64,000 nt of DNA from Escherichia coli (GTDB lineage: Bacteria > Pseudomonadota > Gammaproteobacteria > Enterobacterales > Enterobacteriaceae). Position numbers: made by a program. Positions 9,001 through 12,000 of the stretch are shown here, one piece after another (the first letter of the stretch is position 1; each line of letters starts with the position of its first letter). The stretch lies in assembly GCF_003018255.1 (NCBI RefSeq), contig NZ_CP027441.1. The stretch is one strand, 5' to 3'.

Positions 9001-12000
9001 CAACGTTCAGAGTGACAGGTTTCGCATATTGCATGATGTTTTCCTCCGTTGTTCACATATTCCGCGACACCGGGCGGTGCCGTGCCTCCATCTTTGCCGG
9101 GCCTGCAGGGTTGCAAGGGCGCAAGGGAAGCCGCAGCCTGACGCACACGGCTGGCGGGAGTTGGAGGGTGAGACCGCGAAATCTGAGCGGGTGAACGACC
9201 GGAAAATAACGGCAGACGGGAAGGAGGGACCGGGTGACCGCAGCGGTTCACCTTACCTTGCAACCCGCCCGCAGAAGCCCGGCTACGATGGAGGCACGGC
9301 ACAGCCCGCACACGACACTGAGGCCACATAACTAAACCCCCACAAGGCCATGCCCCGCATGGCCGGGTAAAGCGGAGCCGGCGGCGACTTCCTTTGTGCT
9401 CTGTCCGGGGACCGGCAGGAAAAAGGCGGGGATTTTCCCCGCCATCATCAGCCCCTGATTTTCGCCAGTGCATCCGCCATGCTGCGGATTTCATCCCGTG
9501 CCTCCAGAACAACCTCCCGCAGAATATCCCTGTCAAACCAGCGACGGGACGGTTCATCCGGTATACGCAGCACATCACAGACCAGACCACTGGCCAGGAT
9601 ATGCTCCACACACTCACAGACCAGGTACATTTCCACAGAGGAAAAACGGGCGCCACGGTTCAGAATGGCATCGAGCACCACGGGCAGGTTTTCGTCGTCC
9701 TCATCGAGCCAGCAGGGGTGATCGCTTTCCTTCACCACCAGGCGAAAGCGGCGCGTCTGGCGGGTCAGTAACGTCTGACCGGTGGTGGTCAGCGCCGCCC
9801 GGATACGCCGCGCATCTTCTGCCACCCGGCAACTGACACTGCGTACCGCATCGCGCACCGCATCAAGAACGGCCCTGATTTCGTCTTCGGTCAGCCATTC
9901 ACCGGCATACGGGAAAGACACCTGCGTTCCGTCTGCCGGAAGCACCGGCAGCGCCTGCCACTGACTGCCGGACAGTACAAGTTCCGCTCCGGTTCCGGTC
10001 AGTTTCTGAATGGCGGAGGCCAGGTGCGGCGGCAGCACGCCATCGTGGCGGTTAACGAGTAACGTCGCCAGCCGGGGCGCATCCAGCTGCACGTAAATGC
10101 TGATCCAGCCCGGATAGTTCGGATTTCGCTGGTCAACATCCGTCTCTTCCGGCCAGCCCTGCGCCAGCAGCAGGTTACGGGCGTGGCGACAAATCAGTGC
10201 ATTCAGCGTTTCGTTCATGATTCATGGTCTCCCTGAATCGCCGCCCGCAGGCGGCGATAACATCAGTCGTTTTCGCGTGTGTTGTTTTTCAGCAGGATGC
10301 GGGCCTGATTAACCACCGCCTGACGGCGGGTGACGCATTCCGGGACGGCGAGGCCGTTATCACGGGCGGCCCACTCACGTTTCCACAGTGCCTGTTCAGC
10401 GGTCTGAATCAGGGACGCCAGCAGTTCAGCAGGAACGGCCACCTGGCGGTTTTCGCTCACGTTGCTGATAATCTCCATCACCGCGGCGGAAGAAATACCG
10501 GATTCAGTCCTCTGGTCTTCCGGGATGTCCTCCAGGCGCGCCAGGACAGTCCTGATTTCAGGATCGGCCAGGGAAATATCCATTCCGTCAGCGAGGGCCT
10601 GAATCTCTTCCGGGGACCAGATAACCAGCATCAGCGGAGTGTCTCCCGGATACTTTGCTGCCAGCGCCCGGCATAGCGTTTCGCATGTTCCGTACATTCT
10701 CGTCTCCTTCTCAATCTTTGAAGCAGGAATCCAGTTCCAGAATTTCGGTATACGCCTCCATGAACAGGCGATTGGCGCGATACAGCGTCTGGCGTGTCAG
10801 GCGTTCAACAAGCACATCGGAATCAAAGCGACAGCGATGCTCCATATCGTTCAGCCTGGCCCGAAGGTCACACATGGTGTTGGCCACCTCCGCCACGTCG
10901 GCGCGAAGTTTTTCGTGTCCGGCATAGTTCATTTACGCAGCCTCCGGTTCAAACCAGTTATCATTCGCGGCCCCCTGCTGCATGGCCCGTTGCACGGCGG
11001 CCAGTCGTTGCTGTCCGGCACGGTGATACTGTTCAAGCAGCTCGATACCGATATACCGGCGTCCGGACTGAAGGGCGGCCACGCAGGTTGAGCCGCTGCC
11101 TGCAAACGGGTCCAGCACAATCGCGTTCGGATGTGTGAAGCTCTCAATCAGTGGTTGCAGGCTGGTAACGGGCTTTTCCGTCGGGTGATGACGATTGCCT
11201 GAATATTTCCAGCCCAGCACATCCGGCAGAGGGTTACGGGGCCGGGCCGGACTGCCCTTTGCCAGGATGTAAGCGCATTCGTGGCGGTACGCGACATACG
11301 CAGATTTGGATGTGTAGTTTTTGGTGAACACGAGGTGCCCTGCCACGCTGAATCCGGCGCGTTTCCAGGCCGCCATAAAGCGGTCAATACGGTGCCAGCC
11401 GTAGAAGCTGACCATCAGCGCGTCTTTTTTGAGTACGCGGTACATTTCATTACAGGCCGGTTGCAGCCATTCATCGGTTTTATCGCCAGCGATGGTGCGC
11501 CCGAAACGGTCACGAAAACCGACGAGGTACGGCGGGTCAGTCAGTATGAAATCAATGGCGTTATCAGGAATACGGGCCATAACATCGATGCAGTTACCGA
11601 GGACAAAACGGGACATAACAACACTCCTTCTCTTACAGAAGGCACCAGGAGGGCACCCCTGTGGTGCCCGTTCCCCGCTGCCTGTGGGCTGTTCACCGCG
11701 TCCGGTAACGGGTCAGGCCGACCGTGGAATACCGCAGCCGTCGTCTTTTTGACGGCAAGGCTATGCCGCGAAAGCGGCTTGAAGGGCGTTCATCAGAAAA
11801 GGGCGACGGGCTGGCGTACACTGTCACCGACGCCAGCCGGGAGCGGTAAAAGCGCCCGTCCCGTGCCCGGCCGGACGCGGGACACTGACCACAGGCAGCG
11901 TTTATGCCGCGCCGCGTCAGCCGGCGCAGTAAAAAGAGGAGCACGGCGACATCCTTTACCGGAAAAGAAACGGGCGGTAGCCCGCCCGTCTCCGTCATAC

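Follow-up and report, generated by a model that had tools for sequence, protein, structure and literature searches.

A single gene on a 64,000-nucleotide stretch of Escherichia coli plasmid DNA (contig NZ_CP027441.1 of assembly GCF_003018255.1; hereafter the window) raises the question of what a DNA methyltransferase does when no restriction enzyme accompanies it. An earlier note, made from the sequence alone, had described the gene at 10933..11616 as an orphan, DPPY-motif DNA methyltransferase gene in a plasmid leading region. It had proposed that the enzyme, if expressed early, either helps the incoming plasmid to escape restriction in the recipient or alters host gene expression. We conclude that the gene is very probably an allele of M.EcoGIX, a low-specificity N6-adenine methyltransferase of IncI1 and IncF leading regions that acts specifically on single-stranded DNA (ssDNA). 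Genes of this kind are already known and well characterised, and much of what can be said about the window copy comes from its near-identical relative.

The methyltransferase gene and its family

The gene lies on the minus strand as an intact, ATG-initiated open reading frame (ORF) of 227 amino acids, and a Shine-Dalgarno sequence, AAGGAG, can be read from the sequence 7 nucleotides 5′ of the start codon (11624..11629, minus strand). Its product carries the catalytic motif IV, DPPY, at residues 27-30 (11527..11538, minus strand), which is invariant in nine plasmid homologues. The S-adenosylmethionine (AdoMet)-binding motif I, FAGSG, follows at residues 171-175 (11092..11106, minus strand); in an alignment, it coincides with motif I of CcrM (6pbd). 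This order, with motif IV N-terminal to motif I, is that of the beta class. The Pfam family N6_N4_Mtase (PF01555) matches residues 21-201 with E = 9.5e-41 and a score of 140.6 bits (cut-off 26.7), and the NCBIfam model PRK13699, “DNA methyltransferase,” covers the whole protein, residues 1-227, at 490.4 bits (cut-off 244). Judged by these features, which together bear out the identification made in the earlier note, the predicted product is a beta-class DNA N6/N4 methyltransferase.

The chromosomal orphan methyltransferases CcrM and YhdJ share the fold class and the order of motifs with the window protein, but they are longer and are sequence-specific on duplex DNA. A search of the PDB with the window protein returned CcrM (6pbd) as the best match by E-value. 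Membership of either family is ruled out by the curated equivalog cut-offs: the CcrM model NF050803 scores 88.5 bits, far under its cut-off of 830, and the YhdJ-type model PRK11524 scores 80.3 bits, far under 292. Alignment over almost the full length of the protein (residues 20-205, E ~1e-12) is seen with only two solved structures, 5hek and 5hfj, named “Adenine specific DNA methyltransferase (DpnA),” a small beta-class enzyme that is close in size to the window protein but distant in sequence. Pneumococcal DpnA methylates incoming ssDNA during transformation and is thus a functional analogue. It differs in being sequence-specific (GATC), in being encoded in a restriction-modification locus, and in serving transformation rather than conjugation.

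Comparison with M.EcoGIX of plasmid pESBL-EA11 (NC_018659 54782-55465) shows 224 of 227 residues to be identical (99%). This is the gene named M.EcoGIX in the published gene table, where the order reads ImpCAB, Hp8, M.EcoGIX, Hp9, Hp10, YchA, KlcA/ArdB onwards (PMC4288162). The pESBL plasmid, from E. coli O104:H4, resembles the window in the length of the protein (227 amino acids), in the flanking genes, in the hairpin upstream (~98% identity) and in its IncI-type transfer backbone. Unlike pESBL, the window plasmid is a larger IncFIB/IncI hybrid that carries enterohemolysin and colicin Ia genes. The two proteins differ by the substitutions S38F, D220N and M223E. All three are present in one IncF homologue of 95% identity, and we therefore regard them as natural polymorphisms. 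The possibility that S38F inactivates the enzyme was considered and judged unlikely, given that the same residue occurs in this independent homologue.

The family extends well beyond these two plasmids. YfbB of R64 and YfeA of F are members that occupy the same leading-region position, with 94% and 91% identity, respectively, to M.EcoGIX (PMC4288162). The IncF and IncI homologues that we aligned have 91-98% amino-acid identity to the window protein. A megablast search with the gene matched at least 5000 records of plasmids, of which the majority are conjugative and come from Escherichia, Klebsiella, Salmonella or Shigella; among the matches listed, 53 plasmid records hold DNA at least 99% identical to it. 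In eight sampled IncI and IncF records the immediate neighbours are the same. A copy that is 100% identical resides on a close relative of the window plasmid, the E. coli plasmid NZ_CP027372 (IncFIB and IncI-gamma/K1; MOBP relaxase; MPF_I), which is distinguished from the window by a 5-bp indel and by one IS66 copy that the window lacks.

The placement in a leading region, also proposed in the earlier note, agrees with gene content and with synteny to pESBL. The order and strand of the genes, from a DUF1281 gene through the hairpin and the methyltransferase gene to ssb, psiB, psiA and ardA, are those of pESBL, and in both NZ_CP027372 and pESBL the same block continues past ardA to nikA/nikB and the origin of transfer (oriT). 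From this arrangement, the plus strand of the window would be the transferred (template) strand. The description of the gene as an orphan stands as well. Pfam scans of 18 window ORFs found no restriction endonuclease, a result that cannot fully exclude small ORFs without a family, and none is annotated in NZ_CP027372 across the span of the window.

A candidate single-strand promoter upstream

In pESBL, an element 5′ of M.EcoGIX drives the early induction of the gene. RNA sequencing of transconjugants after elimination of the donor revealed strong induction of six leading-region operons, one of which starts with M.EcoGIX (PMC12672017). The hairpin 5′ of M.EcoGIX was defined as a distinct “class 3” ssDNA promoter; 5′ rapid amplification of cDNA ends located its start site, and the element is conserved in F (PMC12672017).

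The corresponding gap in the window, between the DUF1281 gene and the methyltransferase gene (11617-12001, 385 bp), is ~98% identical to that of pESBL. Within it, the plus strand contains a long imperfect hairpin at 11676..11900 that, by its fold and its ~98% identity to pESBL, is the predicted counterpart of the class 3 element. When the plus strand of 11617-12001 was folded as ssDNA, the predicted free energy was -108.4 kcal/mol, compared with a mean of -79.6 kcal/mol for shuffled sequences (z = -5.8), and 0 of 100 shuffles were as stable. In eight other IncI and IncF plasmids, identity to the window is 97-99% for the hairpin but only 88-96.5%, at the DNA level, for the methyltransferase gene. 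Stronger conservation in a non-coding hairpin than in the gene beside it fits a function, and selection, at the level of the nucleic acid. The consensus fold is retained in all nine plasmid sequences. We infer that the hairpin acts as a class 3 ssDNA promoter here too.

A scan of 9000-12200 for consensus sigma-70 promoters returned 0 promoter-like sites against 1.1 expected. This absence is weak evidence, although it fits a silent operon once the DNA is in duplex form.

A RefSeq “hypothetical protein” ORF of ~101 amino acids (11693-11998, minus strand) overlaps the class 3 hairpin. It has no Pfam match, single-nucleotide indels separate the plasmids within it (alignment columns 253-254), and the starts in the window and in pESBL lie in different frames. 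The ORF is probably spurious, arising in GC-rich, structured non-coding DNA.

Proposed protection of the entering strand and rival roles

The published behaviour of M.EcoGIX indicates what such an enzyme can do. Deletion of the gene leaves transfer into a non-restricting K-12 recipient unchanged, but reduces transfer up to 1000-fold into recipients with EcoGIII or EcoRI and ~9-fold into one Klebsiella pneumoniae strain (PMC4288162). The enzyme is a promiscuous producer of N6-methyladenine (m6A) in the context SAY, with ~40% of sites modified. It acts on ssDNA only and on neither double-stranded DNA (dsDNA) nor RNA, the latter a substrate that the earlier note had regarded as damaging to its proposal. 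Changing DPPY to APPA kills the activity, and the activity co-purifies with DNA polymerase I (PMC7736820). Inversion of oriT abolishes protection (PMC7736820); the requirement for the native orientation implies that M.EcoGIX is expressed in the recipient. When M.EcoGIX is in its native context, SAY sites are left unmodified in plasmid and host alike (PMC7736820). The same activity, that is, ssDNA-specific, promiscuous m6A formation at SAY with association to polymerase I, has been reported for M.BceJIII of the Burkholderia cenocepacia plasmid pBCA072 (PMC7736820), which belongs to another host and another plasmid than the window enzyme.

These observations suggest how the window locus would operate. 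The plus strand would enter the recipient 5′ to 3′ from an oriT that, by synteny, lies just outside the start of the window. The genes ardA, psiB, ssb and klcA, and then the methyltransferase operon, would be among the first ~16 kb to enter. While single-stranded, 11676-11900 would fold into the hairpin that serves as a promoter, a step shown for pESBL and predicted here from ~98% identity and the computed fold. Host RNA polymerase would then read the entering strand to transcribe the methyltransferase gene and three small downstream genes. The methyltransferase, probably acting with DNA polymerase I, would place m6A, preferably at SAY, on the ssDNA before or during synthesis of the complementary strand; the methylation step has been shown for M.EcoGIX, and the link to polymerase I is still a model. 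The resulting hemimethylated duplex would be partly shielded from many of the recipient's adenine-sensitive restriction enzymes. Conversion to dsDNA would remove the hairpin promoter and silence the gene, and this silencing would explain why established plasmids and their hosts are unmethylated.

The central proposal of the earlier note, that an early-expressed orphan methyltransferase guards the incoming plasmid, is what experiments have demonstrated for the 99%-identical M.EcoGIX (PMC4288162, PMC7736820, PMC12672017). Its word “pre-methylate” is misleading, as the plasmid is unmodified in the donor and the entering strand becomes methylated once it is in the recipient. The statement that the target specificity is unknown is out of date, since for M.EcoGIX it is m6A at SAY on ssDNA alone, at the ~40% of sites given above. 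The suggested effect on host gene expression finds no support, as plasmid and host are natively unmodified at SAY in the case of M.EcoGIX.

This last idea belongs to a broader alternative, in which the gene encodes a conventional, sequence-specific orphan adenine methyltransferase akin to Dam, CcrM or YhdJ, which would act on dsDNA to regulate plasmid or host genes. The beta-class fold and the motifs common to CcrM and YhdJ are compatible with such a role, and some database records call homologues “DNA adenine methyltransferase YhdJ.” However, the scores against the CcrM and YhdJ-type equivalogs fall far below their cut-offs, and a protein of 227 amino acids would seem to leave little room for a target-recognition domain. 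In addition, M.EcoGIX, at 99% identity, leaves its native plasmid and host unmethylated and has ssDNA as its sole substrate, and the absence of a new fully methylated motif in plasmid-carrying cells has already been reported for pESBL. We thus consider a regulatory role extremely unlikely. Almost as improbable, in our estimation, is that the main selected role of the enzyme is the control of replication, or competition, via polymerase I, whether by managing complementary-strand synthesis or by excluding rivals. The reported lowering of ColE1 and p15A copy number, the suppression of M13 growth and the co-purification of polymerase I (PMC7736820) favour this idea, but these effects were seen under constitutive, artificial expression, whereas the native gene is silent beyond the first minutes after transfer. 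Moreover, what deletion does in matings depends on whether the recipient restricts (PMC4288162), and transposon sequencing (TnSeq) data from the same study point to normal establishment of the deletion mutant in restriction-free recipients. Even if correct, a replication role would supplement anti-restriction and not replace it.

It is also conceivable that the copy in the window is a passenger, either inactive or in decay, for example through the S38F change near the catalytic loop or as the relic of a lost restriction-modification pair. At least two neighbouring genes in the window (the ParB-like gene and impB) are frameshifted, by decay or by sequencing error, and phenylalanine at position 38 is unlike the residue in most homologues. 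The ORF is nevertheless full length with all motifs intact, and the three variant residues, F38, N220 and E223, are shared by an independent IncF plasmid. The 53 plasmid records, among the matches listed, with DNA at least 99% identical likewise speak against decay, as does the conservation of the leading-region position, with no endonuclease partner, across at least 5000 plasmids. We give the passenger explanation hardly any credence.

Several points nonetheless weigh against our assignment of the window gene as an anti-restriction enzyme of the M.EcoGIX type driven by an ssDNA promoter. The activity data all come from the pESBL enzyme and are carried to the window allele by 99% identity, and one of the differences, F38, lies only 8 residues past DPPY and departs from most aligned homologues. 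The published mechanism itself has an open point in the incomplete modification (~40% of sites), its polymerase I partnership is based on co-purification and an artificial fusion, and the protected PstI-type site CTGCAG is not a strict fit to SAY (PMC7736820). The oriT lies beyond the start of the window, such that the direction of transfer and the assignment of the transferred strand derive from synteny. At the hairpin, compensatory changes among the nine plasmids affect just 2 of 126 predicted pairs, one of these inside the hairpin. Covariation is uninformative because the element is almost invariant, and the case for the hairpin is made by its conservation above that of the coding gene and by the stability of its fold. 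Finally, no -35/-10 boxes came to light on either strand of 11617-12001 in our own scan, which required a match at 9 or more of 12 positions.

The likely operon, its neighbours and the plasmid

Three small genes follow the methyltransferase gene on the minus strand. The start codon of a 73-amino-acid ORF (10711..10932), called Hp9 in pESBL, comes directly after the methyltransferase stop codon (TAA-ATG); the ORF matches no Pfam family, and its position is conserved across all plasmids examined. Next is a DUF1380 gene (10263..10697), Hp10 in pESBL, recognised by Pfam (E 3e-51) and by synteny, which is probably in the same operon. A 256-amino-acid protein without a Pfam family is encoded at 9448..10218, at the YchA/Hp11 position of pESBL as judged by synteny. 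Just 3′ of this gene, on the same strand, is a terminator-like stem of 8 pairs (7 of them G-C) followed by a T-run (9425..9443), where the operon likely ends.

On the other side of the methyltransferase gene, the 5′ neighbour is the DUF1281 gene (12002..12958, minus strand), Hp8 in pESBL, identified by Pfam (E 7e-50) and synteny. As far as is known, it is a conserved neighbour outside the induced operon. Divergent DinI-like, impA and impB genes lie beyond it. Directly after the DUF1281 stop codon, the minus strand can be read as a GC-rich stem-loop with a T-run (11961..11989), ACGGGCGG-GCTA-CCGCCCGT then TTCTTTTCC. A scan of 9000-12200 for consensus terminators did not list this stem-loop. If it functions as a terminator, it would shield the methyltransferase operon from upstream transcription, and the elements at 11961-11989 and 9425-9443 likely bracket the operon.

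One possibility is that the 73-amino-acid ORF, the DUF1380 protein and the YchA-like 256-amino-acid protein, which would be induced from the ssDNA promoter, are partners of the methyltransferase, for example the missing link between the enzyme and polymerase I or the entering strand, or are further anti-defence proteins. We regard this proposal as speculative and rather unlikely. A smaller variant of the same idea is that the S38F/D220N/M223E allele might alter site preference.

The remainder of the leading region, again on the minus strand, includes genes for the KlcA/ArdB antirestriction protein (8609-9034), ssb (6666-7199), psiB (4063-4497), psiA (3347-4066) and ardA (~1789-2289). A 300-nucleotide direct repeat of 95% identity occurs at 2307-2606 and 9053-9352, one copy immediately 5′ of ardA and the other immediately 5′ of klcA/ardB. 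It matches the “class 2” ssDNA promoters, which have been described as a similar pair preceding klcA and ardA (PMC12672017). Two further, adjacent families of direct repeats, of 127 nucleotides (83% identity) and 300 nucleotides (96% identity), are found at 1111-1608 and 7269-7768, 5′ of a 144-amino-acid ORF (623-1057) and of ssb. These are probably Frpo/ssi-type “class 1” ssDNA promoters.

Two genes of this part of the window are interrupted. The ParB/RepB/Spo0J-like gene at 4552-6320 (minus strand), which codes for 652 amino acids in pESBL, is split into ORFs for residues 1-~343 and 416-652 and is either a frameshifted pseudogene or the product of a sequencing error. NZ_CP027372 lists no coding sequence over 4552-6320, and its 5-bp difference from the window maps there. 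The impB/umuC-like gene for a Y-family polymerase (14004-15274, plus strand; 423 amino acids in pESBL) has a frameshift near codon 314 that yields two overlapping ORFs.

Farther along, comparison with NZ_CP027372 together with ORF sizes assigns colicin Ia and its immunity gene to ~18500-20380, the enterohemolysin operon ehxCABD to 41358-47985, and the autotransporter adhesin gene sab to 49740-54050. These genes mark the DNA as a virulence plasmid of Shiga-toxigenic E. coli in which an IncI-type transfer and leading region is combined with an IncFIB replicon. At 21993-24026 (plus strand), an ORF for a TonB-dependent receptor of 677 amino acids (Plug and beta-barrel domains) adjoins a DUF4198 gene; it is unlisted in the gene table of NZ_CP027372.

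In leading regions generally, few gene families are as enriched as orphan methyltransferases (PMC11541004). For the gene at 10933..11616, the appropriate label would be an M.EcoGIX-type, ssDNA-specific anti-restriction methyltransferase with an ssDNA promoter, rather than a generic “DNA methylase” or “YhdJ.” Methyltransferases of leading regions help resistance and virulence plasmids to cross restriction barriers into new hosts.

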